A stretch of DNA of 64,000 nt from a virus (IMGVR_UViG_3300030098_006079), one strand, 5' to 3'. Positions 3,001 to 57,911 are shown, counted from the stretch's first letter. A program made the numbers and translations. Notes: generated by a model not told the origin, from the letters alone.

Positions 3001-6000
3001 TCTAGCTTTAAGAACTAATACAACAGCTAGTTATGCTACTGCAGTAGGTGGCTGCGCTTTACATAGTAACACTACAGGGTCATATAATACCGCTGTTGGT
3101 TTTCATGCTGCATCCTCTAATACAACAGCATTTGGTCAAACAGCTATAGGTTACCATGCATTAATTTGTAACCAGACTGGTTGCCGTAATACTGCTTTAG
3201 GTGTTTTCGCATTGTGTTGTAACGTATCTGGTTGTGATAATACAGCAAGTGGTGTATATGCTCTATATAAAAATACAGGGTCAAATAACTCTGCATATGG
3301 TTTCGCATCATTAATAACTAACAGCTCTGGTGAGTATAACACAGCAGTTGGTGGTTGTTCTTTATATGCTAATACTACTTCTTGTAACAATACTGGTATT
3401 GGTTGGATGTCCTTAAAGAGTAATACAACCGGAGCTAGTAATACAGGAGTAGGAGCTAATACATTACAGAGCAATACTACTGGTGGTAATAATGTTGCTA
3501 TAGGTGACTGTGCTTTACTTTGCAATACAACTGGTGGTCACAATATTGGTATTGGTCATGGTGCTTTATGTGATGCAACGACAGCGGGTGGTAATGTTGC
3601 GATCGGTGGTGTTGCTATGGAGAACACTACAACAGGAGAATATAATATTGCTCAAGGTAAGTATGCTCTTAATGCTAATACAACAGGTTGTCGAAATGTA
3701 GGTTTAGGTTACGCCGCTTTAATTGCTAACACAACTGCTAGTAAAAATACCGCGGTTGGTACTTGTGCTATGTATGATACCTCAACAGGTATTCTTAATA
3801 CTGCAGTTGGAAATGAAACTTTAGTAAACAACACTACAGGAAGCTACAGTACAGCAGTTGGTGCTTGTGCTTTGAAGACTAATACTACCTCTAGTTATAA
3901 CGACGCTTTTGGTATGGGTGCGTTGTGTACTAATAACGGTGGTACCCATAATGTAGCGGTAGGTGGTGTTGCTTTACGATTTAATACTACTGGTTGCAGA
4001 AACACAGCAAGTGGTCATTACGTGATGGGTAAGAACACTACAGGTTGTATGAATGTAGCTTACGGTTATTATGCATTAGTATGTAATACAACAGCTAATA
4101 GTAATACAGCGGTTGGTGCATGTTCTTTATATGCTAATACAACAGGTGCTAATAATACTGCTAGTGGTTATAGATCTTTAGCAAATAATACAACAGGTAG
4201 TGATAACACCGCCGTTGGGTGGTCTGCTATAAAGTCTAATACAACAGGTAGTCATAATGCTGCATTAGGTTATCAAAGTATGCAAGCTACCACAACAGGC
4301 CATTCGAATGCTGCGATTGGTAAACAAACTTTATATGCTAATACATGCGGACAAAGAAACACAGCAAGTGGTTATAGAGCTTTATTTAATAACACTTCCG
4401 GTTCTGGTTCTGTCGCACTTGGTGCATGTGCTTTATGTGGTAATACAACTGCTGGTAATAATATTGCTATAGGTAGAGGTGCTATGAGAAACAATACTAC
4501 TGGTAGTATTAATAGTGCAAGTGGTTATAAATCCTTGTACGCTAACACAACCGGTACACACAATGCCGTTCATGGTTATGAAGCTATGTGTAAGAATACA
4601 ACCGGTGGTTATAATACTGCAATCGGTACATGCGCTTTATTTAATAATACTGGTAATGATAATGTTGCATTAGGATATGCTGCTGGTATTAATAATACTT
4701 CGGGTTGTAATAATGTATTTTTAGGAACAAACTCTTGTGCATGTGATGCTACTTTATGTAATGTTGTTGCTATTGGTAAGTCAGCAGTTGCAACAGCTAC
4801 TAATCAAATCGCATTAGGTGGCTCGAGTCATACAGTAGACTTAGCTGCTTGTAAGTTAACAATTGGTGGTAGCGGTGGTACTGCAGGTTATGTAATGTGT
4901 ACTGATGGTTCTGGTAATGTTGGTTGGACGTCAATCGCTGGTGCTTCTGGAGGTGTTACTTGTGTTGCTACAGCCAATACTCATGTTGGCGATGGTTCAA
5001 TGTCTAATGTAGTTGCTCTTTCAGCTGTACATAACACAGCATATGGTTATCAATCTTTAAAAGAGCTAACATGCGGAGATTATAATACAGCCATTGGGTC
5101 ATGTTCTTTAGGTAAAACAACTACTGGGCTTAGAAATACAGCAAGTGGTTATGCAGCTTTATGGAAAAATACAACTGGTTGTGAAAATACAGCGAGTGGT
5201 ATATATGCTTTAATGAACAATACAACTGCTTCAGAGAATACAGCAGTTGGTAATAGAGCGCTTCTCACTAATAGTACAGGTTGTGCTAATACAGCAGTTG
5301 GTTCAAGCGCTCTTAGAGTCAATACAACAGGTTTAAGACATACGGCGTTTGGTGTAGAGGCTTTAAAGAACAATACAACAGGTAGCTATAATAATGCTCA
5401 AGGTTATGGTGCTCTGTTTACTAACACAACAGGTCAAACCAACGATGCATTTGGTTATGCTGCTCTGTACGCTAATACAACTGGAGGATGTAATGCCGCA
5501 TTTGGTCATGCACCCTTAGCTAAGAATACAACTGGTAATCAAAACACTGCTGTTGGTAATCTTGCTTTATGCTCTAATACAACTGGTAATTATAGTACAG
5601 CGGTAGGTACAAAATCATTATATACAAACACAACTGGTAACAACCAAGCATTTGGTTCATTTTCATTAAAGAAAAACACAACTGGTACTCTTAATAATGC
5701 ATTTGGTTATGCAGCAATGGAAGAGAATACAACAGGTGATTGTAATACTGCAATGGGTCATGCTGTATTAAACAAAAATACAACAGGTTGTAATAATACT
5801 GCCCTTGGCGTACAAGCTTTATACTGTAATACAACAGGTTGTAATAATACTGCAATTGGACGTTCGGCCTTAGAATGTCACACTTCAGGTAAGAATAATA
5901 CAGCCATGGGAACCTGGGCTTTATATAAAACTACAACCGGGCAAAGAAACATTGCTATAGGTAATAGTTCTTTAGAAAAAAATACATGTGGTTGTTGGAA

Positions 6001-9000
6001 TGTTGCAATCGGTTCTCGTTCTTTATATTGTAACACAACAGCTTGTGGTAACACAGCAGTCGGTGGTTGTACTTTACACACTAATTCAACAGGAACTCAG
6101 AACACAGCAAGTGGTTATGTAGCTTTAGCAAAAAACACAACTGGCGCTAATAACACAGCTAGTGGTTATAGTGCCTTACAAAAAAATACAACTGGTCATT
6201 CAAATACTGCAGCTGGTTCATGCGCATTACTTAATAACACAACTGGTTGTTTTAATAATGCTTTCGGTAAGAGAGCCTTACGATCTAACACAACAGGTAA
6301 TCATAATCTTGCTATAGGTAATGATGCTCTTTATGGAAACACAACAGGTAATTATAATACTGCTAGTGGTTATTATGCATTAGGACTTGGAGCAGCTGGT
6401 TGTGAAAATGCCGCGTTTGGTTATAAAGCAGGTATGGGTGTTAATGGTGGTAAGCATAACACTGCTGTTGGTTACGAAGCCTTATTAGCTACAGGAACAA
6501 AATGTCTTAATACTGCTATTGGTCATAAGTCTCTGACATCCCTCACAACTGGCTGTAATAATACTGGTGTTGGTTATGGTTCATTATGTAATGCTACAAC
6601 TGCTTGTGATAATACTGCGCTAGGATATGGAGCGTTTGGTGCTCTTACAACTGGTTGTAGAAACGTAGCTGTCGGTCATGGTGCTGGTAATGCAACTACC
6701 ACCGGAGCGTGCAACTTCTTTGGTGGTCATGGTGCTGGGGAGGACAACACTACCGGTCATAGTAATGTAGCAATTGGCAGACAAGCTATGAATAAAAATA
6801 CAACTGCTGCTTATAATACAGTAGTTGGTGCATGTGCTCTTTTCTGTAATACGACAACTGGTATGGCGATGGAAGCATTTGGTTTTCGAGCACTACATAG
6901 TAACACAACAGGTTCTTGTAATACGGGTATAGGTTTTTGTGCTTTATATAGTAATACAAGCGGTTGTTTTAATACCGCGAGTGGTTACAGATCGCTAGCA
7001 ACTAACACTACAGGATGTAACAACGCGTCATATGGTTCATTTACTTTAGCGGCTAATGAATGTGGTTGTTATAATACAGCAATTGGCTTTAACTCGATGA
7101 AGTGTAATGCATCGGGTAATCAAAACACCGCGAGTGGCTCGTATTCTTTAATGTGTACCTCCTCTGGTAATTATAATACAGCTTTTGGTTATTCAGCTGC
7201 CCTTAACAATACTACTGGAGGATTTAATACTGCAGTAGGTAGAACGTCGCTGTATAATAATACAACAGGTATTGCTAACACAGCTATAGGTATGGAAGCA
7301 TTGTACTGTAATACAACTGCTTCTTATAATGTAGCAGTAGGTTATTGCACATTAAGGACTAATAGTACTGGAGCTAAGAATACTGCCGTTGGTCAAAGCG
7401 CATTAAAATCTAGTACAACTTCCAACTACAACGCCGCATTTGGTTATCAAACATTATTCTCTAATACAACTGGTATTCAAAATACTGCAAGTGGTTCATA
7501 TTCAATGTATGATAATACTACAGGTAGTTATAATGTTGCGTATGGTCTGAATTCATTAGCTAATAACATTACAGGTTGTGCTAATACAGCTATTGGTAAC
7601 AAGACTTTAGAGACTAATACTGCTGGTCATCGTAACGTTGCAATAGGTTGTCTCGCAGGTACGACTATGACTGGTAGTGATAATACTTTCATTGGTACTG
7701 AAGCAGGAAGATATACGACATCTAGTAAGTGTCATGTAGCGATAGGTCGTAACGCAATGAGACATAATTCGACTGGTTGTCGTAATAATGTTATTGGTGC
7801 TTGGGCTTTATATAGAAACACTACAGGAACAAATAATACTGCTAGCGGTTATTATTCTCTTAATTGTAATACAACTGGTAGTAATAATAATGCTGTAGGT
7901 TTGTTTGCTTTACAATGTAGCTGTACAGCTAGTAATAATAACGCAGTAGGTTATGCAGCTTTAATGAAAAATAACGCTGCAGATAATAATGCGTTTGGCT
8001 ACGGTGCTCTACAATATAATACAACTGGTACAAAGAACACCGCTATGGGTTGTCGAGTTATGAATACTAATACAGTTGGTTCTTGTAATACAGCAATGGG
8101 TAGTGAAGCTCTATTTTATAATGAATGTGGTATTTTTAATTCGGCGTTTGGTATAGCTGGTATGTCTTCAAATACAACAGGTTGTCATAATGTTGCAGTT
8201 GGTGGTTGTGCTTTAGCTGGTAACACTACAGCGAATGATAATGTTGCAGTTGGCTTTAAAACGTTATTAGTTTCAACAACTGGTTGTGAAAACGTTGCAA
8301 TTGGTCAGCGCACATTGTGTAGTAATACTACCGGATCAACAAACACAGCTGTCGGTCAACAAGCTCTCGTAAAAAATACTACAGCTCACGACAATACAGC
8401 TGTTGGTAAGAGTAGTATGCATGACAATACAACAGGTACTCTTAATACTGCAGTAGGTAGAAACTCTCTAAATTCTAATACAACAGCTTCTTATAACACA
8501 GCAATTGGTGGTTGTGCGTTATTGACTAATACTACTGGTGCTGCTAATACAGCAAATGGTTTTCGTGCACTAGCATCTAACACTACTGCTTCAGAGAATA
8601 CTGCAAGTGGTTATGCTGCTATGCAATTAAACACAACTGGTTGTGAAAATAGTGCATTTGGTAGAAAAGCAATGTGCTGCAATACAACAGGATTTAATAA
8701 TACAGCAGTTGGAGTAGTTGCGTTAGCTAATAACTCTACCGGTTGTTATAATACTGCAGTAGGTAATAGGGCGATGCTCCTTACTACGTCTAGCTTAAAT
8801 ACAGCAGTTGGTTATGTTGCTTTATGTAAAAATACAACTGGTAATAGTCAGGTCGCTGTTGGAGCATGTGCTTTACATACTAATACAACAGGAGGTGATA
8901 ATGTTGCAATTGGTGTAGAGTCGCTAAGATTTAACACCACCGGTGCTAGTAATGTAGTAGTTGGTAAAGATGCTGCACAATGTAATACGACGGCTAATAA

Positions 9001-11421: not shown

Positions 11422-14400
11422 ATGGCGAAAATTGTTATAACTAACGGTACTATTCACTCAGATGATGATTTTAACTTAACATCTGGATCGGATGCGAATA
11501 CACGTAATAACTTCCGGATATGTAAGCAAAAAGATTCACATACCCGATTACGTTCATTATCATCCTTTAGAATAAAAACGCACGATTTACTCAATACTGG
11601 TAATGCAGAGATTTGTGGAAATCTTACTGTACATGGTACCTGTACTGTTCTTAATACTACCTTATGTTTAACAGATACAACTGCGACTGATAACTTTACT
11701 CTTGTATCTACTGATGCGGGTGCGTCTGCTGCTCCTGATTTTAAACTGTATAGAAACTCAGCCAGCCCAGCTAATAACGATTCTTTAGGCCATATTAAAT
11801 TTAGTGGTAAGGATGCTGCCGGCAATGAAACTGAGTATGCAAGTATAAAGGGTTGTATCCAATCTGTTGGTTCTGGTAGTGAGTGTGGCGCAATGTTAGG
11901 TAATGTTGTTATTAATGGGTCATCAACTGATATAATCAGAGTTGATTATGCAGGTTTGTGGACTCAAAACAACAAAAATTTGTATCTTAATGGAAGTGGT
12001 CAACTTCGAAATTACGGGGCTTGTTTAAGACTATCTACAGGAGGAGGAGACTATAAAATAACATTCGAGCCAGACTCTACTGTTAAAATGTGTTTACATG
12101 GAGGAGAGTTAACAGTTTGTAATAAAGTTTATACACCAATATTAAGAGCTACTGCTTGTACATTTTATGGTGCTTGTGGTTCTAGTAAATTATCCTCTGA
12201 TGGAGATAATATGCGCCATACTACACAGTATGGTTGTATTAATTTTGGTCCAGGTAATGCTAGTTATGCTCATATAACAACTGATAGAAGTCAATTTTAT
12301 TTTAATAAACAGCTTGTAGTCGATTCTGGCGTTGTAATGTCTTACAATGAAGATCTTAAACTTTCACGTGCTGGTAATAGTGTAAATGCTATTTATATAT
12401 GTAGCGCTCTAACAACTAGTTGTAATCCAACTAAACTATTTTCACAACAAGGACATACCATACCGCAGACTGGTAATGCTGTGTGTTGGTTGAAATTTGG
12501 ATCTTTATGTATACCGCAACACGGTTATAAGATGCGCATGAAAGTTGTTGCGAGTAATGGTTACGGTTCTAGTACAACTGACACTACTCAAGAAACAACA
12601 CTTTTATTTCAAACTGCAAACACCGGTGAAGCTAGTTCCGGTTCAAGTGTGTGTGCGTGTGTACATTCATTTATAGAAGGTAGTACGAAACGTGAATCAG
12701 ATGCTCCTTACTGTTTTATTGTACACGAAGTTAATTCCGCATTATTTGAAATATTTGGTAAATTTAACACTTATACAGGAACCGGTAGTTATTATACAAT
12801 AGAATCTGGACCTACTACATGTTGGATTGCATGTAACTCTTTTGTAGATCCTGATTCTTGTTCAGGTTCTTGTATAGTATCTATACCTAATAGAGGTACT
12901 ATATTTTGTACATCTTCCTCTACTACATGTATATGTGGTTCTGCTATTGTTCAGGGCGATATATGCATGAATAACAATTCGCGTGGTTATAAATTAGGTA
13001 CTGATACCGGTGGTTCTGGTAGTAGAGCTTTTCTAGCATTAGATTCTGACGGTTCTGATGGTATTGGAGCTGGTTCTGATTATTTCTTCGTTGCTAATGA
13101 TGGTTCTGATACCAGATTTTATAATGAAGGCCCGGAACATATAAGACTATGTGGTAGTTCGTGTGTTGCTTTTTGTAAACCGATAGCAGTTCACTGTTGC
13201 GCAAGAATAGCTACTATTAGAAACTTTACCAATACTACATACATGTGTCTTTGTGGTGGTTGTTGTTTGATAGGTGGTATACAGTTTAAAGACTGTCAAG
13301 GTTGTGACCGTGGCTGGGTGTATCATGATGGTGCTGCTAATTTTGGTTTATTATCATGTGCTGGATCTTGGGCTATTAAAATAACAGGTACTAGTAATAT
13401 ACAAAGCTCTTACACTCATTGTTTTTCCGGAAATATTGGTCTTGCTGGTGGATCTGCTAGTCGGGTGTGTATAGCTGGTAAGCGCGCTATAGAAGGTAAT
13501 AGTTGTATATTATCTTTAGGAGAAGATTGGGATTGTATATGTTTACGAGCTACTTGTACATATTCTACAGGAAACATATGTACTACTGCATGTTTACAAT
13601 CATCTGTGGTTTGTTCTACAGGTTGTGTAAAAACTCCGTTGATACAAGCGCAAGGCGGTGGAAGTTGTTTTGGTGCGCCTGCAGGTTGCGATGACTGGGA
13701 ATGTAGTCCTATTAGCATTAGAGAAAGAGGAGCAGTTTCTTCTAATCAAAGTCATGATTGTTATGCTCCTAACTTAAACTTTCATTGGGCTGGTAGAGTT
13801 TCAAACTCTTTGTATATGGCGGCGAACGGTCACTTAAAGTTTGGTTCTTATAATAGCAGCGGTTGTCCTGATGGTCCGAACGGTGTTTTCTGGGCTGGTA
13901 CTCTGTGTGGTAATACTTGTGTAAAATCTCCTATTGTTTGTGGTACAACATGTTTAGCTACTAATGTTATTTCTAGTAGTGGTAGTGCACCATCTGATTA
14001 CGGTGCATTGGCGATTGAAGGAGCCAAAGGAGGTTATGGTGGTGTTCATTTCTGTGGGTATACATTTATGGCAGCATCAGATTGCGGTGGCGGTGGTATT
14101 TATAACGATACTCACAATCAATGGGCTATATGGAATGGTGCAAATGCTGCTACTTACATTTATCATGCTGGTAATGCGAAATTACATACTATCACCAATG
14201 GTGTACGAGTATGCAAAGAATCAAACGCCGGGTATATAGACATTTGCCCATCAGGTGGTTGGGGTCATCTTATAACTAGTAACAATTGTTTCTACATGAA
14301 CGTACCATTGATGGTCAATGGAGGTAGTATTGGTTCTTATGACGAAGATTTAACGCTACAAAGAGGTTATTCCCTTACTGCTGCTGAAAGTATAAAGATT

Positions 14401-15147
14401 ACATCAGGTACTACTCATATATGTCAGCTTACAAAAGTTCATGGTTGTATATGCGCTACCTCTAACATTCAAACTGCAGGTAAGATTCATATTTGTTCTG
14501 CTCATAATTGTCTTCATATGGCGTCTATCTGTGATGCCACGAACTATAACTTTACCATATGCTCAATGTATAATTGGGCTTGCTCTCTCCGTATTACAAA
14601 CAGGGGCGTACCCATATTAAAGGTATGCTCTGGAAATTGTATTACTTCACTATGGGGTAATAATACCGAAAGGATTTGCCTTCATCCTACGGGTACAAAA
14701 ATAGTTGGAGATTTATGCGTTACAGGTCAGGTTTGTGCAGATGGTATGGAGGGAGATACTCTCACAAGCCAGACTGTATGTACAGGTACTATTTGTTTTA
14801 ATACTAGTTGTGTAACAGGGTTGGATGCGGTATATGATGTGTATGTTTCAGCTAACCCAAATTGTGGTGGTTCAACACTATATAGAGATATAGTACATAT
14901 GTCAGTATATGTTACCACAGGTTGGAGTGGTTCAGCAGTGACTAAGTACATTAACCACGTAAATAATTTTGTTAGAGGAGCTGTACATGGTTCTGGCGCC
15001 GGTTCGGTAACTGCCGTTCCTAAATTATTAGTCGGAACAACAGGTTGTGAGTGTTATGCTGCTGCTTGTGCGACTTGTTTGCAAATTCAAGTAGCGGGTG
15101 GGTCAAATAAATATGACACGTGTGTGAAAATTAAAAGAGTTTTATAA
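11422..15147 (+). CDS. Cys-rich tail fibre-like protein (1241 aa)
   Basis: Long Gly/Ser/Thr/Cys-rich ORF in the fibre cluster; segment DAGASAAPDFKLYRNSASPANNDSLGHIKFSG is typical of marine phage fibres; late-promoter-like AATAAATA upstream. Confidence 0.7.
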   Translation: MAKIVITNGTIHSDDDFNLTSGSDANTRNNFRICKQKDSHTRLRSLSSFRIKTHDLLNTGNAEICGNLTVHGTCTVLNTTLCLTDTTATDNFTLVSTDAGASAAPDFKLYRNSASPANNDSLGHIKFSGKDAAGNETEYASIKGCIQSVGSGSECGAMLGNVVINGSSTDIIRVDYAGLWTQNNKNLYLNGSGQLRNYGACLRLSTGGGDYKITFEPDSTVKMCLHGGELTVCNKVYTPILRATACTFYGACGSSKLSSDGDNMRHTTQYGCINFGPGNASYAHITTDRSQFYFNKQLVVDSGVVMSYNEDLKLSRAGNSVNAIYICSALTTSCNPTKLFSQQGHTIPQTGNAVCWLKFGSLCIPQHGYKMRMKVVASNGYGSSTTDTTQETTLLFQTANTGEASSGSSVCACVHSFIEGSTKRESDAPYCFIVHEVNSALFEIFGKFNTYTGTGSYYTIESGPTTCWIACNSFVDPDSCSGSCIVSIPNRGTIFCTSSSTTCICGSAIVQGDICMNNNSRGYKLGTDTGGSGSRAFLALDSDGSDGIGAGSDYFFVANDGSDTRFYNEGPEHIRLCGSSCVAFCKPIAVHCCARIATIRNFTNTTYMCLCGGCCLIGGIQFKDCQGCDRGWVYHDGAANFGLLSCAGSWAIKITGTSNIQSSYTHCFSGNIGLAGGSASRVCIAGKRAIEGNSCILSLGEDWDCICLRATCTYSTGNICTTACLQSSVVCSTGCVKTPLIQAQGGGSCFGAPAGCDDWECSPISIRERGAVSSNQSHDCYAPNLNFHWAGRVSNSLYMAANGHLKFGSYNSSGCPDGPNGVFWAGTLCGNTCVKSPIVCGTTCLATNVISSSGSAPSDYGALAIEGAKGGYGGVHFCGYTFMAASDCGGGGIYNDTHNQWAIWNGANAATYIYHAGNAKLHTITNGVRVCKESNAGYIDICPSGGWGHLITSNNCFYMNVPLMVNGGSIGSYDEDLTLQRGYSLTAAESIKITSGTTHICQLTKVHGCICATSNIQTAGKIHICSAHNCLHMASICDATNYNFTICSMYNWACSLRITNRGVPILKVCSGNCITSLWGNNTERICLHPTGTKIVGDLCVTGQVCADGMEGDTLTSQTVCTGTICFNTSCVTGLDAVYDVYVSANPNCGGSTLYRDIVHMSVYVTTGWSGSAVTKYINHVNNFVRGAVHGSGAGSVTAVPKLLVGTTGCECYAAACATCLQIQVAGGSNKYDTCVKIKRVL

Positions 15148-15153
15148 AATACT

Positions 15154-18100
15154 ATGGGATTATTAAGTCAACAATACGGAAAACTAGTCGAGCTTACTGC
15201 AGGAAGTACTTTATGTACCCCTACTATTCGCGCGAATGCGGATAACGGTAGTGGGTGTGTACGGTTTGGTAATATATGTGTGGGTTCCGAAAACCTGTAC
15301 AACACAATACAGAGTTGCACTAACCTCCACTTTCGCGCAGCGGGTAACTGTCCTATTATTGTAGGAGACTCTGGCTCTACTCATACTAAAATCTGTAATG
15401 CAGTATGTTCTCCTATACTTTGTGGTACAACATGTCTATCTACCGCGCAAGTCATTGGTACAAAAGTTTCTGTTGGTTCTCTTAATACGAATTATGATCT
15501 TTACAATAATGGTACGAGTTATTTAAATGGTCATGTCACAATAGATGATAGTTTAGCCATTACAGGCGCGAAGATAATGAAAACTGGTGGTTATAATAAA
15601 CCAGGTATTCAAATGTGCGGTACAGGAAATTATAGTTTTTGCGACCTAAACGTTTTTCTTAAAAATACAGGTGCTGCTAACTCTGCTATATTCTCTGATT
15701 ATGAACCACATGGAGAGTGGGGATTATTTCATGATAATAATGATGACGCATTTTATATTACTGCAGGGTCATCATGTCATAATGTAGGCAGTTTTAATAT
15801 GAAAAACTGCGCTGGTACAGTTAGAACAGCGTACATTAAACAAAAATTTGTTCAAGGTAATGGTAATGCGGAGATCGGAGGGAGTCTTTCTGTAAGCCCT
15901 GATTGTTCAAATAATTATAATGGTATGGCGATTGGTTGTACTTATACTAATATTGGTGGTTGGCACACTCAGCTTAGTATGTATGGAGGCTCTCATGCAG
16001 TTGCAAGATGGAATCATGGCGCTGGTACAGATGGGGCTAATAACTCTCGGCATAACTGTATATATGCACACGTAGACAATCCATTTGTAATCTGTAGTTC
16101 TGGTAATATTAGGTTAAAACCCGGTACTGGTACGACAGTTTCGTGTGGTATGTTTTGCGCCGGTTGTGTATGTGGTGTTACTTGCGTATATTCAAATTGT
16201 GTATACGCCAACAAACTTCAGGCTGATACATGTGTTGTAACTGGTGATTTGTGTTTAACCGAAGACTATAGTGGAGACATGTCTAACGGAATACAGTTAG
16301 GTCGTAGTATTGGTATACCGCAGGCAGCATGGGGAGAGTCTGGTGTGAAAACCGGTAGAATTGAGATTGGGTTACCAACTAAAGATGGTGAAGGAGGTAG
16401 TAGTCATTTAGGTATGATTCATATGACTGTTGATGTATATGAATACGACGGTAATGATGTCTCGACTTTTATTATCGGTGGTCACAACTGGAGTTGTCGT
16501 TGGTACAATTGCGGTGCTCATATCACGGGAGGCTGCACAAACAAAACTATAAAATTAGCCTATCATGCTTGTGGTGGTACTTGTAACGGAAGGTATGTTG
16601 TTCTAATTGGAGAGTGTGATAGCTCTTGGAACTATGGTTCGGTACATGTGAGAAGAATTAATAACGGACTGTATTACAATGGTAATATGGATATGGGTAC
16701 TCCTATGTATGTTAAGAGAGTTACTTGCTCTGATAGTTATTATAATTGTACTACTAGTGATTTAAGATCAGATTCAAAAAGTATGGCAGCATACCAATAC
16801 GCTACGACCTGTGTTCACACTCCTAGGGTTTGTGCTACTACTTGTGTAAGGTCGTCTTATTTATACTCTACAGGTAATATATGTGGTACTGAAATTTGCT
16901 CTGGTTCGTGGTTTAGAAATGCTAATTCAGGTCAAGGGTTGTATAATTCAGCTACAGGGTTTCATTTTTATTCCACAGCAGCAAATATTGTTCGGATTTA
17001 TGGTGCTAGCGCTGATAATATCGGTCTACAAGGATATAGTTGTGGTGCTGCTCGTGGTTGTTTAAATTGGAATTGTTATAATCAACTCAATGTGTACGAC
17101 TCTGGTGGTAATGTTAGATTTTTAATAAACTCTAATACTGATATTAGACTGTGTAATACAACCTGTTTACATTGTAATATATATGTTGGTGGCCGAATAT
17201 TTGCTTGTACCCAGAGCGAAAGTCTCAACTTTAAAGGAGCTCGTGGTTGTTTTACTAATGAGTATATGCACCTATACAATAAAGTAGGTATAGGTCATCC
17301 ATCTGGCTGGGGGTGTGGTGAAACAAATACTCCTGATAAAGGACTTTCTACATATGGTAAAGCATGTATAGGTTATGGTGTATCTGCTTCGACTGATACA
17401 TTGAAGGTTGCAGGAGGAGTTTCAACTCTCGGTGCAAAAGCTTTATATAGTGAGAGTTATGCAAATTCTTTTTATCCTGATGCGGTTGGTACATGGAACC
17501 TTAAATCTGCATCTGGTCAGACTCACAGTAGCTTAAGATTTAGACGAGGGGATGGGAATATTGATGGTTATGTATATTCAAGTACAGGTGGGTATATAGG
17601 TTTTCTTGATTCAGCATCTTATTGGGCGTATGGTCATCAAACTAACGCGTGTCATTGGTGGAATATAAGCAATACTACGCATATGAAACTGTGTGGTAAT
17701 TGTCTTTGTCATTGTCATACTATATGTGCTCAACATTGTTTACGCGCTGATAAAGTAGAAGGCGTTTCGTGCGTGCAAAGTTGTAGATATCAACATCATT
17801 GGCGCACTATAGCTATAGGAGGAGATTATGATAAGTTCTATCCTATTGGATTTACTGTGAAAGGTGGTAATAACTCTGAAGATATATTAGAAATAGCTCA
17901 ACCTAGTGTTCACGCTCCGACCACTAGTTGCGGTGCTATGTATCTTAAATTAGGTGTTAATATTACAGGTTGGGGTCATATTAGTAATCATTATATAGTA
18001 CACAAGTATGCAACTGGTGGTACTAATTCATTAGTATCCAAGGTTAGAGCAATCGACCATTCAACATGTAGAGTTGGTGTATGGTTACGAGGTGGTCTCA

Positions 18101-19941
18101 CTTATTACTATAGATCTAGAGAAGGTACTATTGCTTGTAATATTACTGGTGGTACTACTGCGAGTTGTTTATCCTACGATAATGCAAATAACGCTTATGA
18201 TGTATCCGTACAGTATACTAGCTCTGTAGAGGATAACAATTTTGGTAATACAGGTGGTTGTAATGCTGGAAATGCTTATTTAACTCACCATAGTAGTCTA
18301 GGTACAAGTGTAGTTCTAACTACCGATAACTTACAACAGGCTTTGTGTTGTGGGTGTTGTACAAACACAGTTTGTTTAGGAAATTGTGGTGTTATAAAAA
18401 ATACAAACTTTACTACAGGGGTTGTTTGTGGTAATGATTGTGTAAGAGGTGGTAAGTTATGCTCTTCTGCATGGATATGCGCCAACACAGAAATATATCT
18501 CACTAATTGGGTAAGATTTAATACAGCGAATAAAGGTCTTTATTGGGCTGGTGCATGTCAGACACATCTTTACCCGGCGCAATCTAATTCAACTTTGTAT
18601 TTGAGATCGTGTCACTCTAATACTAGTTTAGCAATAACTACAAGCAACAATACTACTATACGTGGTTATCTTTATGGTGACTCGAGTAATAACTTTGGTT
18701 TCTTAGACTCTGATGGACAATGGGCTATAAGACACCTAGGTAATAATTGCACTGAATTTAGAATAGACAATGGAATAAAAGCAACTATATTCTCTTCATG
18801 TTTTTGTAGTAATAATGTTATATGCGCTGCTACATGTGTACATAGCGCAAAAATTTGCGGTACTCATTACGGAGATGGATCTAACTTAACTGGTGTTGGT
18901 GGTGGTTACTGTACTTGTTGTAATACCACAATAAAAACTGGCGGTACAGATTGTGGTAATATATATTTAGGTAAAGATGTGTTCGCTTGTGGTGTTGCTC
19001 AGGGTAAAACAACAGGGCATTTTAGGAACGTTGCTATAGGTGATTTTGCAATGGGTGCTCTTGGGTGTGACCCACATAGTAACGTAGTTATTGGATATAG
19101 CGCCGGCTCAACTGCTGGAACAACTTGTTGTCGAGGCTGTAACGGCTATTGTTATAATGTATACATAGGTCGTAATGCTGGGGACGGTACTTTTAATGGA
19201 TCAATCGGTGGTACCTCTAATACCGGTTCATGTAATGTGTTTGTTGGAGCATATACTGGCGGTGGTCCGCATAATGGGAAAAATAATGTTCTTATTGGAA
19301 CTAACTCTGGTTACAATATGCAGTGCGGCGCGTCTTGTAATTTGTTTTTAGGTCATGGATCTGGCGGTCATGTAACTACTGGTTGTAAGTGTGTTGTAAT
19401 TGGTTATGGTAGTGGTCAGTGTTACGACAACGCATCAATTTGCGCTGCGTGTACTCATGTAGCAACGTTAAATAAAAGCTCTGGTTCTTTTATTATTCCG
19501 CATCCTGATCCAGCAAAAACAGCGACAACTGACTTACGACATAGTTATGTCGAATCTCCTACGAGAGGTGATAATATTTATAGATGGCAAGTGGATGTTA
19601 CTAATTGTTGTAACGTTATTACGTTGCCAAGCTATTATCAATTTTTAAATGAAAATGATATGGTATGGGTATCACCTGTAGAGCATTTCGGTTCAGCATA
19701 TGGCAAAGTCACAGAAGATCAATGTTGTGCAATTATATGTACAAATGCTGACGGTAAATATAATGTTTTATTAGTAGGTACAAGATGTGACTGTATGGCT
19801 TTAAATCATTGGAAGGGTGTTGAACCACCAATGGAGAGTACATCTCCAGCACTTAGCGCTATTACTGAAGAAAATCCTAATGGGCCAGATTTTCCTCGTA
19901 GATTTGTATGTAATGTCAGAAAGCCAATGTCTGAATGGTAA
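15154..19941 (+). CDS. Cys-rich tail fibre-like protein (1595 aa) with C-terminal chaperone-like domain
   Basis: Beta-rich fibre composition; NVxIGxxAG repeats near the C-terminus; ends with SFIIPHPDP...LRHSYVESPTRGDNIYRW, a recurrent phage fibre C-terminal domain. Confidence 0.72.
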   Translation: MGLLSQQYGKLVELTAGSTLCTPTIRANADNGSGCVRFGNICVGSENLYNTIQSCTNLHFRAAGNCPIIVGDSGSTHTKICNAVCSPILCGTTCLSTAQVIGTKVSVGSLNTNYDLYNNGTSYLNGHVTIDDSLAITGAKIMKTGGYNKPGIQMCGTGNYSFCDLNVFLKNTGAANSAIFSDYEPHGEWGLFHDNNDDAFYITAGSSCHNVGSFNMKNCAGTVRTAYIKQKFVQGNGNAEIGGSLSVSPDCSNNYNGMAIGCTYTNIGGWHTQLSMYGGSHAVARWNHGAGTDGANNSRHNCIYAHVDNPFVICSSGNIRLKPGTGTTVSCGMFCAGCVCGVTCVYSNCVYANKLQADTCVVTGDLCLTEDYSGDMSNGIQLGRSIGIPQAAWGESGVKTGRIEIGLPTKDGEGGSSHLGMIHMTVDVYEYDGNDVSTFIIGGHNWSCRWYNCGAHITGGCTNKTIKLAYHACGGTCNGRYVVLIGECDSSWNYGSVHVRRINNGLYYNGNMDMGTPMYVKRVTCSDSYYNCTTSDLRSDSKSMAAYQYATTCVHTPRVCATTCVRSSYLYSTGNICGTEICSGSWFRNANSGQGLYNSATGFHFYSTAANIVRIYGASADNIGLQGYSCGAARGCLNWNCYNQLNVYDSGGNVRFLINSNTDIRLCNTTCLHCNIYVGGRIFACTQSESLNFKGARGCFTNEYMHLYNKVGIGHPSGWGCGETNTPDKGLSTYGKACIGYGVSASTDTLKVAGGVSTLGAKALYSESYANSFYPDAVGTWNLKSASGQTHSSLRFRRGDGNIDGYVYSSTGGYIGFLDSASYWAYGHQTNACHWWNISNTTHMKLCGNCLCHCHTICAQHCLRADKVEGVSCVQSCRYQHHWRTIAIGGDYDKFYPIGFTVKGGNNSEDILEIAQPSVHAPTTSCGAMYLKLGVNITGWGHISNHYIVHKYATGGTNSLVSKVRAIDHSTCRVGVWLRGGLTYYYRSREGTIACNITGGTTASCLSYDNANNAYDVSVQYTSSVEDNNFGNTGGCNAGNAYLTHHSSLGTSVVLTTDNLQQALCCGCCTNTVCLGNCGVIKNTNFTTGVVCGNDCVRGGKLCSSAWICANTEIYLTNWVRFNTANKGLYWAGACQTHLYPAQSNSTLYLRSCHSNTSLAITTSNNTTIRGYLYGDSSNNFGFLDSDGQWAIRHLGNNCTEFRIDNGIKATIFSSCFCSNNVICAATCVHSAKICGTHYGDGSNLTGVGGGYCTCCNTTIKTGGTDCGNIYLGKDVFACGVAQGKTTGHFRNVAIGDFAMGALGCDPHSNVVIGYSAGSTAGTTCCRGCNGYCYNVYIGRNAGDGTFNGSIGGTSNTGSCNVFVGAYTGGGPHNGKNNVLIGTNSGYNMQCGASCNLFLGHGSGGHVTTGCKCVVIGYGSGQCYDNASICAACTHVATLNKSSGSFIIPHPDPAKTATTDLRHSYVESPTRGDNIYRWQVDVTNCCNVITLPSYYQFLNENDMVWVSPVEHFGSAYGKVTEDQCCAIICTNADGKYNVLLVGTRCDCMALNHWKGVEPPMESTSPALSAITEENPNGPDFPRRFVCNVRKPMSEW

Positions 19942-25560: not shown

Positions 25561-25987
25561 TATGGAAGTAGAAACGTTAAATAAAACATGGTTCGTAGAT
25601 GTAGATGGAACAATCCTACATCATCACACAAATGATAGCTTGGATAAACTTATCGAGGAGTATGGAGAAGATAGTTTTAAATATGAACAGCCTATTGTTA
25701 GTGCTGTAGAGTTTTTTCAAGATCTACCGGAAACAGATATCATTGTTATTGCAACTGCTCGCGAAAAGAGACACACCGATCATACATTAAATGTATTAGA
25801 ATATATTGGTATGCCTTTTGATCAATGGATATTCGAGTTAGGTGCTGGTCCTAGAGTTGTGGTAAACGACATCAAACCACCGGGCGCGGCTGGCAATAAA
25901 AGAGCTCTCAAGACAGCTTACGGAATTAATCTAGATCGAGATGGAGGAATTACATCAAAGCATCGTGCGATTGCAGCAAAAATTTAA
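25553..25987 (+). CDS. HAD-superfamily phosphatase
   Basis: Motif I WFVDVDGT, motif II IATAR, C-terminal [11 protein letters not shown]. Confidence 0.75.
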
Positions 25988-25988
25988 A

Positions 25989-27170
25989 ATGGTAACAAAA
26001 ATAGGAACCCCGTTTACGAAGACTTCTACTTTAGTAATGCTATGTGGAAGTGGAGAGTTAGGTAAAGAAGTTGTAATTGAATTGCAGCGTTTAGGTGCTG
26101 AAGTAGTTGCAGTAGACTCATATGAGAACGCTCCAGCGCATCAAGTAGCAGATCATTCGGCTGTTATTGATATGCTCGACGAAAAACAATTGAGGGATGT
26201 CATCGTTAAATACAATCCTAATATTATTGTTCCAGAGATTGAAGCTATTGCTACAAATGTCCTGAAAGAAGCAGAAGAATGTGATCGTACAGTCATACCA
26301 AATGCTAGAGCAGTTCAACTTACTATGAACCGAGAAGGTATTCGGTCTCTTGTAGCTGAAGAGCTAGGTTTAAAGACTTCTAATTATAAATTCGCTTCTA
26401 CTAAAGAAGAGTTCACCGCAGCTGTTGAAGAAATCTCTTTACCTTGTGTAGTTAAGCCTATTATGTCTTCTAGCGGTAAAGGACAGAGTGTAATTAGATC
26501 GTTTGACGATGTACATACTGCCTGGGAATACGCTCAAACTGGAGGTCGAGCTGGAGCTGGTCGAGTTATTGTAGAAGAGTTTATTGAATTTGATTATGAA
26601 ATTACTTTACTCACAGTAAAGCATAACGACGGTATCTCTTTTTGTGAACCTATCGGGCATGAGCAAGTAGATGGAGATTATATTAAATCCTGGCAACCTC
26701 ATCCAATGTCTGGTACCGCGAGACAAAAAGCTGAAGATATTGCTAGAAGCGTAGTAAGCAATCTTGGTGGGTATGGTGTGTTTGGAGTAGAGTTATTTGT
26801 AAAGGGTGATGAAGTTTATTTTTCTGAAGTATCTCCACGCCCACATGATACTGGTTTAGTGACTATGATCTCTCAAGATCTATCAGAATTTGCTCTACAT
26901 GCAAGAGCTATATTAGGTTTACCAATCCCTAATATTCTACAGCTAGGTTTTGGAGCATCTCATGTTATTAAGCTAGAAGGTAAGAGTGATAATGTAACAT
27001 TCTCTGGCTTCGACGGTTTAAAAGAAACAGGTACTCAAGTGAGACTGTTTGGAAAACCTGGAGTAAATGGTTCGCGTCGTATGGGTGTTGCTTTAGCAAT
27101 TGATAATGGTTTAGGATATGCAAAAGAAAAAGCCGAACGAGTCGCACTCAGCGTTAAGTCCGAATTGTAA
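25989..27170 (+). CDS. purT: Formate-dependent phosphoribosylglycinamide formyltransferase (ATP-grasp)
   Basis: IGTP...[65 protein letters not shown]; start assigned to ATG 25989. Confidence 0.95.
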
Positions 27171-39653: not shown

Positions 39654-41231
39654 CTACTCATCAGTTTTAAACTCCGCTTTTTTTGTTCCTCGCCAATGAG
39701 GAAATTCTCTTCTACCAAAATTGTTACCATATGCGGTCCACATATGAACAGTAGTTCCGTGTTTAACTATAACAGGTCCCCAATCATCAAACTGTAAGCC
39801 AGGTATATCCATTTCACATACATACTGGTGTACATCGTTTGATATTAATAAGTGATCATTATCCCCTGCATCCATACAACGTTGAGCCATATTAATACCT
39901 GTACCGCTTACGTTAGGGTTATCATTTATATCTTTTACAGGGACTACTGGACCAGAATACAATCCATTCCTTAAACCAATACTAGAATGTTTATAAGTCA
40001 TACGCCCTACATCGACCATACACTTAAATGCAGCATTAACGCTATTAAAAAATACTAACGCCATACCATCTCCAGTAGGTAATATAATTAATTTACCTTG
40101 TCTGTCTGCTTGTTGATATCCTTGTGTACCTTTAACACAATCAATTAACTCATCTGTAACTTTCTTTTGCTCAGCTGTAGTCTTTTTAGAATAACCTACT
40201 ATATCCATAAAGTAGGTATGAGCTCGACATGGAGAGTCGTATTGAATTCCTTCTCCTTTTAACTTAAATGGATCTTGTCCCCACTTCCATTTTATAACTC
40301 TTTGTTTCTTTTTATCTTCTTCTTCTTTTTGTATTTTCTCAGCTGCTTCTCTTCTTGCTTTAGCTTGTTCGCCTGCTATTCTATTCTTTACAGCTTCTCT
40401 TTTCTCTTTTTTATCTTTTGATTCAAATAGTTTACCTAACAGCGTATCAGGTTCTTGTAATGCTTTTCTATCTTCATCTTGTTCTCTACGTTCTTTTCTT
40501 ATGCGATCTAAAGCTTCGTCGGCAGCTTTATTATCAAAAACTTGATTATTGACTCTTGGTTTGTATTTAGGATTATCCCTACTAGGGTGTTTACATGCTC
40601 CTCTTTTAACTAAGTAGTCAAGCATTACATTACTATTATTAGCATTAGCTATTTCCCAGGCATTATAATGGAATTGATCATTAGGATTGTAAGTTGATCC
40701 GTTTATGTTCGCTTTAGCATCTAATAAAATTTTAACTATATTAATATTGTTAATATCTACTGCGTAGTGTAAGGCCATCCACCCTCTATGGTCTCTTGCA
40801 TTAATTTTTAAACTATCATCTTCTAATAGACCTTCTATTTCATCTATATCTTCTAACTGTACGCATTGATGTAAAGTAAGTTCTTTATTATAAAACATAC
40901 CCCCTGCGTCTCTTAATGAACCTACAATTTTATGACGATTAGGTCCATCAGCTACATCCATAGCGGTAACTATAGGACATTCTTTGTCCTCCATTATCGC
41001 TAAGTTCCAACTACTCTGTCTAACACTTACTGGTTTACTTGGAGTGTTTGGATCTACTCCAGCTTCAAGAATAACGCTTACTATTTTTACTTTACTTTTA
41101 TTAGACGCGTAGTGAAGTGGAGTCCATCCGTTATCTTCATCTGTAGAATAAAATAAATTAGGAGTTTCTAAAGCCCTTTTTATACATCTTAAGTTCCCCG
41201 TCGCAGCTAATTGATGCAAACTCTCATCCAT
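39654..41231 (-). CDS. Ankyrin-repeat + coiled-coil + class III nucleotide cyclase fusion
   Basis: Ankyrins GWTPLHYAS and GWMALHYAV; cyclase FMDIVGYS, PTGDGMALVF, LRNGLYSGPV, GINMAQRCMD. Confidence 0.85.
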   Translation of the reverse strand: MDESLHQLAATGNLRCIKRALETPNLFYSTDEDNGWTPLHYASNKSKVKIVSVILEAGVDPNTPSKPVSVRQSSWNLAIMEDKECPIVTAMDVADGPNRHKIVGSLRDAGGMFYNKELTLHQCVQLEDIDEIEGLLEDDSLKINARDHRGWMALHYAVDINNINIVKILLDAKANINGSTYNPNDQFHYNAWEIANANNSNVMLDYLVKRGACKHPSRDNPKYKPRVNNQVFDNKAADEALDRIRKERREQDEDRKALQEPDTLLGKLFESKDKKEKREAVKNRIAGEQAKARREAAEKIQKEEEDKKKQRVIKWKWGQDPFKLKGEGIQYDSPCRAHTYFMDIVGYSKKTTAEQKKVTDELIDCVKGTQGYQQADRQGKLIILPTGDGMALVFFNSVNAAFKCMVDVGRMTYKHSSIGLRNGLYSGPVVPVKDINDNPNVSGTGINMAQRCMDAGDNDHLLISNDVHQYVCEMDIPGLQFDDWGPVIVKHGTTVHMWTAYGNNFGRREFPHWRGTKKAEFKTDE

Positions 41232-41239
41232 ATAATTAT

Positions 41240-41524
41240 TTATTCAGCATAGTAGAAGGGAATACTAGCCGAAGCGTGACATTCATAACACCTATCATAA
41301 GTTTTTACCAATAATTGTATATCATCTGCATGAATATTAACTGAATTATATTCAGGCATAGCCTTTAGTATGTCAACTTGTCTTTTATATGTTTGACAGG
41401 CAGCTATTTGAGCTCTTCTCTTAGCGTTACTGTAGGATTGAACGGCGAGAGCTGTCAATAGCGCTATAATTGTTATAGTGAGTAATAATTCTAGTAGAGT
41501 ATATCCTTTATTCCCATGCGTCAT
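41240..41524 (-). CDS. Small type IV pilin/pseudopilin-like protein
   Basis: Prepilin site KG-YTLLELLLTITIIALL; C-terminal CYECH. Confidence 0.8.
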   Translation of the reverse strand: MTHGNKGYTLLELLLTITIIALLTALAVQSYSNAKRRAQIAACQTYKRQVDILKAMPEYNSVNIHADDIQLLVKTYDRCYECHASASIPFYYAE

Positions 41525-42488
41525 CCCAATACCATCCCCATGAGTCGAAAGTTTTTCCTGATATATCTCTTAAATTCCACTCTCTTACATATCGTCCAAT
41601 ACCTCCACCCATCCAACCTTTCCATGGATGATTGTTAGGATAAGGGACAATAGCTCTTTCTTGTAACCACTGCAAATCTCTATTACCCGGGCTTACTACT
41701 TGTTCTAGACTAGTGTTAGGGTTCTTTACATGTTCTGGTATGTTTTTAGTGAGCTCTTCTAACCATCTTCTAAACTCAACATGCCCATCAGTAAATGATA
41801 CCACTGATCCATTTATATGATATATACCAGGCCAATCCATAGAAAATATAGACTCCTTATCTTTTAGTACAGGAACTACTCTAAAGTTACCTGCGTTAAT
41901 TGATTCTGCTGGCATCTCAATAAATGTAAACATGTTACTCGGGTCAGTTATATCTGCATATTTGTGATGTACTTTATATTGATTGTCATATAAAAAAGGC
42001 CATCCTGACCATCCACCTACAAATATATTCATACTGTATGATCTTGCTCGTTGTACAGTAGTAACTTTATTTGTACCAGAAGAGGGAGGAGGGACCATTC
42101 CCCATCTTCCACCATCCCAAGTTACAGTAGACTTATCTTGAGGACAACGATAGATACCTTTACCGGCATACTGGAACAAAGGAGACCAAATTAAAGACCT
42201 TTCCGTTTGAGCCCATTTGCTCCACTTACTACCACCTGACATACTATCAGCTACCCAGGCTCTTGGTGCAGTAGGTTCGTTGTGCCAAGCAGATGCGTAT
42301 GCTATTTTATCATCAGAGTCTAATGCTAGCTGACTCATAGCATAGTTTAGTTGCTTATGATTAGAAATACAAAGAGCTTTAGATGCAGACTGCTTTGACT
42401 TAGATAAAGCAGGTAATAATAAGGCAGCAAGTATAGCTATTATAGCTATTACTACAAGTAGTTCTATTAAAGAAAAGGCTTTTTTCAT
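41508..42488 (-). CDS. Prepilin N-methylation + H-X9-DG domain protein (PVC-type pseudopilin)
   Basis: KA-FSLIELLVVIAIIAILAALLLPAL; CPQD; HINGSVVSFTDGHVE = H-X9-DG. Confidence 0.88.
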   Translation of the reverse strand: MKKAFSLIELLVVIAIIAILAALLLPALSKSKQSASKALCISNHKQLNYAMSQLALDSDDKIAYASAWHNEPTAPRAWVADSMSGGSKWSKWAQTERSLIWSPLFQYAGKGIYRCPQDKSTVTWDGGRWGMVPPPSSGTNKVTTVQRARSYSMNIFVGGWSGWPFLYDNQYKVHHKYADITDPSNMFTFIEMPAESINAGNFRVVPVLKDKESIFSMDWPGIYHINGSVVSFTDGHVEFRRWLEELTKNIPEHVKNPNTSLEQVVSPGNRDLQWLQERAIVPYPNNHPWKGWMGGGIGRYVREWNLRDISGKTFDSWGWYWDDAWE

Positions 42489-57074: not shown

Positions 57075-57150
57075 GCACGTCGACCGAGCAAGTGAACGGA
57101 GTGGTCTGCAAAACCATCTATGCAGGGGGCGGTACCCTGGGCGTGCTCCA
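57075..57150 (+). tRNA. tRNA-Cys(GCA), non-canonical D- and T-loops
   Basis: Acceptor gcacgtc/ggcgtgc, U73, CCA; anticodon arm gtggt-CTGCAAA-accat; T-stem caggg/ccctg with loop GGCGGTA; TTGCAA-16-TATAAT promoter just upstream. Confidence 0.8.
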
Positions 57151-57169
57151 ATTTCTTATAAATACTTAC

Positions 57170-57397
57170 ATGGCTGATCGTGATGAAAAGAACAAAGAGA
57201 ATGTAGAAGGTAAGTATTATGTAGATGAGCAGTGTATTGACTGTGATTTATGTAGAGAGGAGGCTCCGAATAATTTTACTAGAGAAGATAATGAAGGTTA
57301 TTCCTATGTATATAAGCAGCCAGAGAATGATCTAGAGGAAGAGATGTGTCAGAGTGCATTAGACAATTGTCCCGTTGAAGCTATAGGTAATGACTGA
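57170..57397 (+). CDS. Single-cluster ferredoxin (75 aa)
   Basis: GKYYVDEQCIDCDLCREEAP...CPVEAIG; late promoter at 57157. Confidence 0.9.
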   Translation: MADRDEKNKENVEGKYYVDEQCIDCDLCREEAPNNFTREDNEGYSYVYKQPENDLEEEMCQSALDNCPVEAIGND

Positions 57398-57572
57398 GAT
57401 ATTAAATTGTGAAGAAGAAGATTGTCCTAAGGATTTTTATGAGCTAGAGAGCTGTGGAGAGACCCATTTAAAGACATGTATGAATTGTTTTAAGCGTGTA
57501 ATGTTAGTAGCTACAAAAGACATGGCGAATGCTTTGATAGAAGAAGGAGAAAGGTGTGCATTAGACCAATGA
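57390..57572 (+). CDS. Small Cys-containing protein
   Basis: CxxxxC...C...CxxC pattern; overlaps the ferredoxin stop. Confidence 0.45.
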   Translation: MTEILNCEEEDCPKDFYELESCGETHLKTCMNCFKRVMLVATKDMANALIEEGERCALDQ

Positions 57573-57677
57573 AGCCTCCTAGTCCAGATAAGCCAGTAAG
57601 TCCATTTGTTATATTAATAGCATTACCAATAGCGTTAATATGTACGTTATTTATGTATTTGAGTAATTTAAAATTTT

Positions 57678-57911
57678 ATGGTACGAGTGTTAAAAGAGAC
57701 GAGTAAGTTACTTACTATAATGATAGTTATAGTATTCTTTTCTATCTTATTATCTGAAGAGCCAATAGAGGCTAGAGCTAATAAGATAGTAGAAGATAAG
57801 TTAAGTTTACATAACACCCTTACGAGAGAAGAGAGAGATGAATACATGTTATATTTGCGTAGCTTAAACGCAGAGACAAAGGATTCAATCTATAGTATAG
57901 AGTTACCGTGA
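57678..57911 (+). CDS. Small membrane protein
   Basis: One TM segment. Confidence 0.45.
   Translation: MVRVLKETSKLLTIMIVIVFFSILLSEEPIEARANKIVEDKLSLHNTLTREERDEYMLYLRSLNAETKDSIYSIELP

Follow-up and report, generated by a model that had tools for sequence, protein, structure and literature searches.

A probable tRNA-Cys(GCA) gene of an uncultured marine phage carries an alternative elbow shared by a wider family of viral tRNA genes

In a 64,000-nt stretch of viral DNA (hereafter the window, meaning this stretch at its full length), we found a 76-base gene for a complete cloverleaf with the anticodon GCA, and we consider it probable, from sequence and comparative evidence, that this gene encodes a working elongator tRNA-Cys with an elbow of a second, co-adapted design. 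Its phage is marine and uncultured, and probably has a genome well above 100 kb. Of the universal elbow bases, the gene retains G19 and C56 alone; the other positions are A18, G54, G55, G58, G8 and G14. Few bases in biology are as conserved as G18, T54, Psi55 and A58, and every tRNA finder has them built in. Genes with the odd elbow occur in at least 206 loci among viral and metagenome stretches, and the elbow would most simply be an alternative structure whose parts have come to depend on one another, so that it is locked in and hard to revert.

The coordinates of the gene, its parts and its neighbours are collected in Table 1. The original prediction for this DNA had described an intact cloverleaf with an encoded CCA and the cysteine identity elements GCA and U73, and all of these could be read at the locus, where the cloverleaf is also the minimum-free-energy fold. 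G8 and A9 lie between the acceptor and D stems, the D stem is made of C10-G25, C11-G24 and G12-C23 together with the A13.A22 mismatch, the anticodon stem (GUGGU/ACCAU) has 5 bp, and the variable loop, CUAUG, has 5 nt. The unusual T-loop, the absence of GG from the D-loop and the retention of C56 had likewise been predicted, and were confirmed. The T-loop occupies 57128–57134 and reads G54 G55 C56 G57 G58 U59 A60, and the 8-nt D-loop is GCAAGUGA, or G14 C15 A16 A18 G19 U20 G20a A21 in structural numbering; G55 is thereby found with an AG rather than a GG D-loop while C56 is kept. The fold energy was ordinary for the composition (z = −0.17 against shuffled sequence), so for a GC-rich 76-mer such as this one, fold stability alone is no proof of a tRNA.

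Standard searches passed over the gene. ARAGORN, which had been proposed as a check along with the prediction, called a tRNA-Leu(UAA) and a tRNA-Thr(UGU) in the window, with no call at the variant tRNA-Cys and no tmRNA, and Rfam at gathering thresholds returned the same two tRNAs only, the variant falling below the RF00005 threshold of 29 bits. Its best match in a permissive Rfam search was tRNA-Sec (RF01852), with a score of 21.7 bits where the cut-off is 47, and its D arm can be drawn in the manner of tRNA-Sec, with six pairs closing a loop of 4 nt. A tRNA-Sec identity was nevertheless rejected on the basis of the 7/5 stems, where tRNA-Sec has an acceptor/T helix of 13 bp, the 5-nt variable loop in place of a long variable arm, the anticodon GCA in place of UCA, and this sub-threshold score; tRNA-Sec and the selC*-type tRNA-Cys have 8/5, 8/4 or 9/4 stems, compared with 7/5 here (Mukai et al., 2017, as cited in PMC7609411). 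With covariance model R1, the gene scored 93.7 bits, compared with approximately 20 bits for the two other tRNAs of the window, both of which have ordinary loops. Exactly one odd tRNA was found in the window, and one in each of five related contigs.

The closest relatives were found beside the same ferredoxin gene. This ferredoxin is encoded in eight viral contigs, two of which (L001 and L002) have the same tRNA just upstream, as a direct neighbour in L002 and with a small ORF in between in L001. Their tRNA differs from that of the window at 1 of 76 bases, a change of G67 to A that turns U6.G67 into U6-A67, and the flanks and the ferredoxin itself diverge. In both contigs (L001:337–486 and L002:2830–2979), the CCA of an ordinary tRNA-Met(CAU) is followed at once, with no spacer, by G1 of the odd tRNA-Cys, so that a single RNase P cut at the odd 5′ end would also make the 3′ end of the tRNA-Met.

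A pattern requiring both odd loops exactly had matches listed in 12 viral contigs and 98 metagenome stretches. All of the matches with tRNA spacing were cloverleaves, comprising 24 distinct 76-base variants and two with a 6-base variable loop. In these type-1 variants the acceptor stem is paired at 7 of 7 positions and the T stem at 5 of 5, the 3-bp D stem is the same throughout, and the anticodon stem is paired at 5 of 5 positions, or at 4 of 5 in a few Asn variants. The exact loops were also found with GUU and G73 (Asn) and with GAC and A73 (Val), while U73 accompanies the anticodon GCA in 17 of 17 type-1 Cys variants. A second odd type has the D-loop AUCAGCAA and the T-loop GGCAGCA; across both, U73 is present in all Cys-type relatives, and CCA is encoded in all of those of type 1 and in most of those of the second loop type. 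When single genomes representing 185,579 species were searched with the exact-loop pattern, 9 matches came up, none with tRNA spacing or a cloverleaf. A looser scan (AGCAAGTGAA...GGGCGGTAC) was discarded, as it added only false positives, namely a protein-coding family (L021–L026 and L028) and L027.

Table 1. Coordinates of the variant tRNA-Cys gene, its parts and associated features, counted from the first base of the window.
Feature	Position	Strand	Basis
tRNA-Cys(GCA) gene, alternative elbow, U73 and encoded CCA; probably functional	57075–57150	+	sequence, fold, comparative evidence
Acceptor stem, 7 bp, GCACGUC/GGCGUGC, including U6.G67	57075–57081 with 57140–57146	+	
D arm, CCG/CGG, A13.A22 mismatch	57084–57099	+	identical in 26/26 type-1 variants
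Anticodon GCA (Cys) in loop CUGCAAA	57108–57110	+	
T arm, CAGGG / GGCGGUA / CCCUG	57123–57139	+	T stem covaries in 4/5 pairs
Discriminator U73 (57147) and encoded CCA (57148–57150)	57147–57150	+	sequence
Sigma-70-type promoter TTGCAA-16-TATAAT (predicted)	57037–57064	+	consensus scan, 10/12 matches
4Fe-4S ferredoxin, 75 aa	57170–57397	+	Pfam Fer4_13, E = 2.3e-21
Three giant Cys-rich ORFs	203–11338, 11422–15147, 15154–19941	+	4.4, 6.9, 6.7% Cys

Across 29 distinct sequences, 99% of the stem cells were paired, and 19 of the 21 pairs showed compensatory changes; none of 500 shuffles reached any of the measures, and slid controls gave 30–46% pairing. Covariation in relatives had been proposed as a check, on the understanding that the loops of a pseudogene would vary randomly, and we observed that the loops were fixed while the stems changed. 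Together with identity elements that match for six amino acids (see below), the covarying stems argue for a functional variant and not a pseudogene, as had been suggested. A scan anchored in the anticodon arm only returned ordinary tRNA-Cys, the type with unchanged loops, or the second odd type, with no intermediates, and ordinary phage tRNA-Cys genes were found to share an identical anticodon arm with the odd tRNA-Cys. That the whole cloverleaf is conserved and covarying also ruled out an attP or integration-site remnant.

To describe the wider family, we used a general pattern, GA-NNN-AG-NN-AAC ... U33 ... A37 ... GGGCNGNAC, in viral contigs, with the spacing fixed to class I tRNAs, as in all of our pattern scans; the counts it gives are lower bounds. 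Perfect cloverleaves made up 83 of the 84 distinct matches listed. The general scan fixes A18, G19, G53-C56, G58, A60 and C61, so the invariance of these bases in the 83 sequences is partly built in, and only the anticodon-arm scan and a blind cloverleaf scan (described below) are free of that bias. The anticodons and discriminators recovered with the general scan formed the sets Cys/U73, Asn/G73, Asp/G73, Val/A73, His/C73, and Gln with G73 or A73, and for each of these six amino acids the discriminator is the matching bacterial one; the His-type odd gene also encodes the bacterial G-1. At least ten D-loop/T-loop combinations were present among the matches listed, and four Val(UAC) genes, with GCUAGUGA/GGCGGAA, lie just outside the general pattern.

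Many of these genes stand within tRNA arrays. Among 65 distinct loci with at least five ARAGORN tRNAs, an ordinary tRNA with the anticodon of the odd one was present in only 2, and in the other 63 clusters the odd tRNA is the sole bearer of its anticodon. One array (L263) has 26 tRNAs for 19 amino acids, with Asn alone missing, and its odd tRNA is an Asn tRNA; another, with 24 tRNAs on an 87-kb viral contig (L012), is likewise without Asn. In this latter array, ARAGORN also called a tRNA with a two-base anticodon, “aa” (L012:6748–6818, minus strand). That the odd tRNA is the array's only one for its amino acid, and that its discriminator is matched, is the strongest argument that these tRNAs are charged and used. 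Each array has one or two tRNAs of the odd design, and their 5–26 neighbours are ordinary.

Outside viral contigs and metagenome stretches, the design was not encountered. Using blastn against 50,697 phage records, we obtained no match with the region, with the tRNA alone or with the commonest Asn relative, and the general pattern had 0 matches in 401 sampled Pseudomonadota genomes. None of the window proteins tested against cultured phages was near a cultured phage. The window DNA is present in marine metagenomes of several studies; assembled contigs from four libraries, one of them truly RNA and the other three doubtful, leave 56409–57721 uncovered.

Compared with canonical tRNA-Cys (RF00005), the variant has the same 7/5 acceptor and T stems, 5-bp anticodon stem, U33, GCA, A37, U73 and CCA, and differs in having no G18, T54, Psi55, A58, U8 or A14, and Y15-R48 in place of R15-Y48. 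The A13.A22 mismatch is a feature of E. coli tRNA-Cys that the odd tRNA shares. As a point against the reading as a working tRNA, E. coli CysRS also reads G15.G48, an element that is not universal among bacteria; set against this E. coli-type combination of A13.A22 and G15.G48, the odd tRNA has A13.A22 and a C-G at 15-48.

We compared the tertiary positions of 56 distinct family members. At 8-14, G.G was found in 44 and U.A in 12, at 15-48, C-G in 46 and U-A in 10, and at 16-59, A/U in 48 and C/C in 8, with no exceptions to the covariation at any of the three pairs; the four Val(UAC) relatives have U/A at 16-59. As 8-14, 15-48 and 16-59 are standard tertiary positions, the core is probably built as usual. 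In tRNA-Sec, the 16-59 contact is C16:C59 or U16:U59 (PMC7609411). A Sec-like D arm of 6 pairs and a tetraloop would account for the Rfam match, and its 15-20 pair does covary (C-G in 46, U-A in 9 and U-U in 1), but it has less support than a normal core, which is preferred on the strength of the exceptionless 8-14 and 15-48 pairs. The base that follows the D-loop G (naive position 19) varies among U, A and C, and a purine occupies position 57, a feature common to all tRNAs. With a free base after the G and a constant A-G, the D-loop A-G would correspond to positions 18-19, such that A18 faces G55 and G19-C56 is kept. An earlier proposal of a U18/G55 swap does not agree with this, since the proposed U18 is free (U, A or C) in the relatives; the likely partner of G55 is the A on the 5′ side of the D-loop G, giving A18.G55.

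As a check independent of the family, a blind cloverleaf search was made over all fetched phage loci, with the family's own GGCRGYA T-loops set aside. Of 531 distinct tRNAs with U55, 522 have a GG D-loop, and of 15 with G55, 13 have an AG-only D-loop; in a first, smaller table, the 18-55 association gave a Fisher p of 1e-6. The 54-58 pair outside the family was U.A in 524, A.U in 9, A.A in 9 and G.G in 8, while inside the family it is always G.G. Based on these counts at 54-58 and 18-55, each deviation is found singly elsewhere, and the family combines them all. Phage tRNAs in L123:5078, L214, L020:5267, L256:5693 and others have A54.U58 for T54.A58 (AUCGUAA, AUCGUUA and AGCGUUA), and G54.G58 with an ordinary U55 was seen as GUCGGAA in two tRNA-Phe. 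The elbow of phage tRNAs is more plastic than the textbook view.

The T-loop GGCGGUA is identical, letter for letter, to that of alphaproteobacterial tmRNA (RF01849), in which it is likewise closed by a G-C-rich 5-bp stem. In 10 of 10 alphaproteobacterial two-piece tmRNAs fetched (L359–L368), the T arm reads CCGGG-GGCGGUA-CCCGG, with the alanine acceptor and ACCA coming next, and U-to-G changes at these T-loop positions have been described in the tmRNA of Caulobacter and Reclinomonas (Burks et al., 2005; PMC1168896). This tmRNA differs from the odd tRNA in having no anticodon arm or D stem, in its alanine acceptor and ACCA, and in a D-loop analogue with GG (AAAYAGGAUCGAC). With its full anticodon arm and U73, the odd tRNA departs from the RF01849 type, which is recognized by an alanine acceptor with G3.U70 and ACCA, the lack of an anticodon arm and a tag frame. 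An RF01849 search of the window gave no match, and no tmRNA-type 3′ ends with a GGCGGUA T-loop were found in the fetched phage loci; among sampled Pseudomonadota genomes, 31 of 121 had an RF01849 match above the cut-off. As GGCGGUA works in tmRNA, bacterial RNase P, EF-Tu and ribosomes should, by analogy, be able to handle the loop, and the identity of the two T-loops may hint at an alphaproteobacterial host. The D-loop analogue of tmRNA keeps its GG in 10 of 10 cases, so G55 is not always tied to A18.

The tRNA-Cys gene lies in the gap between an ORF at 56381–57031 and the ferredoxin gene, 19 nt upstream of the latter. A sigma-70 promoter had been predicted for it, and the consensus scan is in agreement with this, placing the end of the −10 box 10 nt before the tRNA 5′ end. 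A 35-nt element around the putative promoter, TTGCAAAACTCTGCGGAGTTCYTATAATAGG, occurs once in the window and is nearly identical in L001 and L002, where it precedes either the tRNA-Met and the odd tRNA, or a small ORF and both. The prediction had also placed the tRNA under a spurious extension of the ferredoxin ORF, and here too the comparison bore it out: eight viral ferredoxin homologues align from residue 1 of the product starting at ATG-57170, and the extension from GTG-57092, which overlaps the tRNA, is therefore spurious. In most relatives, the ferredoxin gene is not adjacent to the odd tRNA. The upstream ORF (plus strand, 216 aa) has a weak protein-kinase match (E = 6e-4), and a search for its relatives in viral contigs found none. 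L001 and L002 hold other genes at its place, and a contig of run X18/X19, whose library type is doubtful, goes from approximately 56358 straight into the promoter element. The ORF seems to be absent in relatives, and may have been inserted recently between two copies of a duplicated promoter. Other genes of the window encode an ankyrin-repeat protein (525 aa; 39654–41231, minus strand), a PurT-like ATP-grasp enzyme (409 aa; 25941–27170, plus strand), and a protein with a pilin-like N-terminus (41508–42488, minus strand).

The window also encodes a likely demand for cysteine. Typical bacterial Cys content is roughly 1%, and that of the products of three giant ORFs (3711, 1241 and 1595 aa) is several times higher; their Asn content reaches 13%, and Pfam assigned none of the three to a family. 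In window ORFs of at least 100 aa, the codon TGT is used 388 times and TGC 80 times. A homologue of the giant ORFs in the nearest relative (a 119-kb contig, estimated to be 59% complete) has 6.7–8.8% Cys, and a 1720-aa Cys-rich homologue was located in L369–L372, from the same relative. The giant ORFs probably encode structural or fibre proteins and are likely the main consumers of Cys-tRNA. A link between the tRNA and Cys-rich proteins had been part of the original prediction, and the values in the window (4.4–6.9%) and in the relative fit it; the simplest purpose of the odd tRNA would be to provide extra tRNA-Cys for these proteins, a demand argument that draws on two genomes.

We propose the following course for the tRNA-Cys. 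The gene would be transcribed from its own promoter, and in relatives together with the abutting tRNA-Met; RNase P would cut at G1, with CCA already encoded; host CysRS would charge the tRNA through U73 and GCA; and the tRNA would decode UGU and UGC, which are heavily used by the phage's giant proteins of 4–7% Cys. Within the elbow, A18.G55 would stand in for G18.Psi55 with G19-C56 kept, G54.G58 would replace T54.A58, and G8.G14 and C15-G48 would take the places of U8.A14 and R15-Y48, with A16-U59 present and the A13.A22 mismatch kept. As these pairs fall at standard tertiary positions, the tRNA probably retains the L-shape as well as the outer stacking face of G19-C56, in a geometry whose exact form we infer. 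The T-loop GGCGGUA cannot receive m5U54, Psi55 or m1A58. A reading as a co-adapted structure is favoured by there being only one or two odd tRNAs per phage, by the lack of a partner gene, and by the fact that known escapes act via the anticodon loop; an added benefit of the elbow design is possible.

One such benefit would be protection. According to this explanation, which accepts the same working tRNA and which we hold to be unlikely, though the most plausible of the alternatives, the elbow is kept because it shields the tRNA from enzymes or nucleases that read the T-Psi-C/GG corner, whether these are tRNA-targeting toxins of the host or of rival elements, or a function of the phage that clears away host tRNAs, and the phage could then decode Cys (or Asn, in relatives) while ordinary tRNAs are under attack. 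We regard it as equally doubtful that the GGCRGYA/A18-G19 corner is a second elbow solution kept on purpose, with the shape required by RNase P, EF-Tu and the ribosome preserved and every base read by T-loop enzymes and nucleases gone. In line with protection, the design was found, among everything searched, only in viral and metagenome contigs (for the exact loops, 0 cloverleaves in 185,579 species genomes; for the general pattern, 0 of 401 Pseudomonadota genomes; and 0 matches in 50,697 phage records), the loops are fixed while the stems drift, and G54, G55 and G58 exclude the usual T-loop modifications and leave T-loop enzymes no base to act on. Escape of phage tRNAs from tRNA-cleaving defences is also established, to date by way of changes in the anticodon loop (van den Berg et al., 2023; PMC10264068; and, for the T5 tRNA-Lys against PARIS, Burman et al., 2024; PMC11464382). 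Like the odd tRNA, these escape tRNAs are phage-encoded and differ from host tRNAs at conserved positions; there, however, the changes are in the anticodon loop and their effect was tested, whereas the change in the window tRNA is in the elbow and is known from its sequence. Against protection, only one or two tRNAs per array are odd, and their 5–26 neighbours, like the tRNA-Leu and tRNA-Thr of the window, are ordinary; no nuclease or partner gene is consistently found alongside; and in the literature consulted, defence nucleases attack a tRNA at its anticodon loop, CCA tail or T-arm backbone, and not at the T-loop bases.

Neighbouring genes bear on a second alternative, in which the tRNA is orthogonal and its elbow is a handle by which a partner encoded by the phage (for instance an enzyme that modifies tRNAs, a transferase or a protein resembling a synthetase) would act on these tRNAs alone, perhaps in a non-ribosomal role. 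The only neighbour genes that recur across loop types encode an HNH endonuclease and a DUF2828/DUF7788 protein. The former, of the homing type, is the most widely shared (L252:4112–5032, plus strand, and 62 other loci), and may help to spread odd tRNA genes between phages; the latter (511 aa; L180:1501–3033, minus strand, and 10 other loci) is encoded no more than 10 kb from odd tRNAs that represent five loop types. This DUF2828/DUF7788 association, in 11 loci, would suit an orthogonal tRNA, as would the extreme conservation of the loops over six identities. Yet both recurring neighbours are absent from the 64-kb window, the tRNA has no gene family that stays with it from lineage to lineage, and the odd tRNAs as a group have ordinary bacterial identity sets and fill gaps in otherwise ordinary arrays, all of which lead us to judge an orthogonal tRNA very unlikely. 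More broadly, no nuclease or partner gene consistently travelled with the odd tRNA among the fetched loci, and no pattern emerged in the share of Cys or Asn encoded by the short flanking loci.

Slightly less probable again is a role outside translation, either as a processing signal, with RNase P punctuation before the ferredoxin mRNA, or as a decoy that acts as a sponge for a host factor. The position of the gene 19 nt upstream of the ferredoxin gene, under a common promoter, and its rejection by gene finders would both be expected of such an element. It would, however, have no need for six matched sets of discriminator and anticodon, for the G-1 of the His type or for an encoded CCA; the ferredoxin gene is not adjacent in most relatives; and 63 of 65 arrays have no other tRNA for the amino acid of the odd one. 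The decoy, which had been offered as an option in the original prediction, is made unlikely by the retention of U73, G73, A73, and C73 with G-1, and by the filling in of the missing amino acid. Finally, a decaying pseudogene or a chance cloverleaf, to which the unremarkable fold energy (z = −0.17) and the sub-threshold Rfam tRNA score might point, is refuted to near certainty by approximately 200 loci with fixed loops and by compensatory change in every stem.

In the literature, we found no description of tRNAs with a GGCRGYA / A18-G55 elbow, including in a 2020 review of non-canonical tRNAs (PMC7609411), and a paper on long tRNA arrays holds nothing on T-loops or D-loops (Santamaria-Gomez et al., 2021; PMC8421152). 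If protection were the true explanation, the hidden tRNAs, for Cys in this phage and for Asn, Asp, His, Gln and Val in other loci, would be a means of counter-defence, or a shut-off-proof supply, that works via the elbow and not the anticodon loop, and the odd tRNA is a testable candidate for elbow-level evasion of tRNA-targeting defences. If the reading as a working tRNA with a co-adapted elbow is true, the family would offer a natural scaffold for dissecting each elbow contact and for making tRNAs that evade T-loop-modifying enzymes. Phage tRNA inventories would also have been under-counted, with many arrays that were scored as lacking Asn or Cys being complete, and a widespread, selected family of this kind would mean that bacterial translation tolerates another elbow in ordinary tRNAs, beyond tmRNA.
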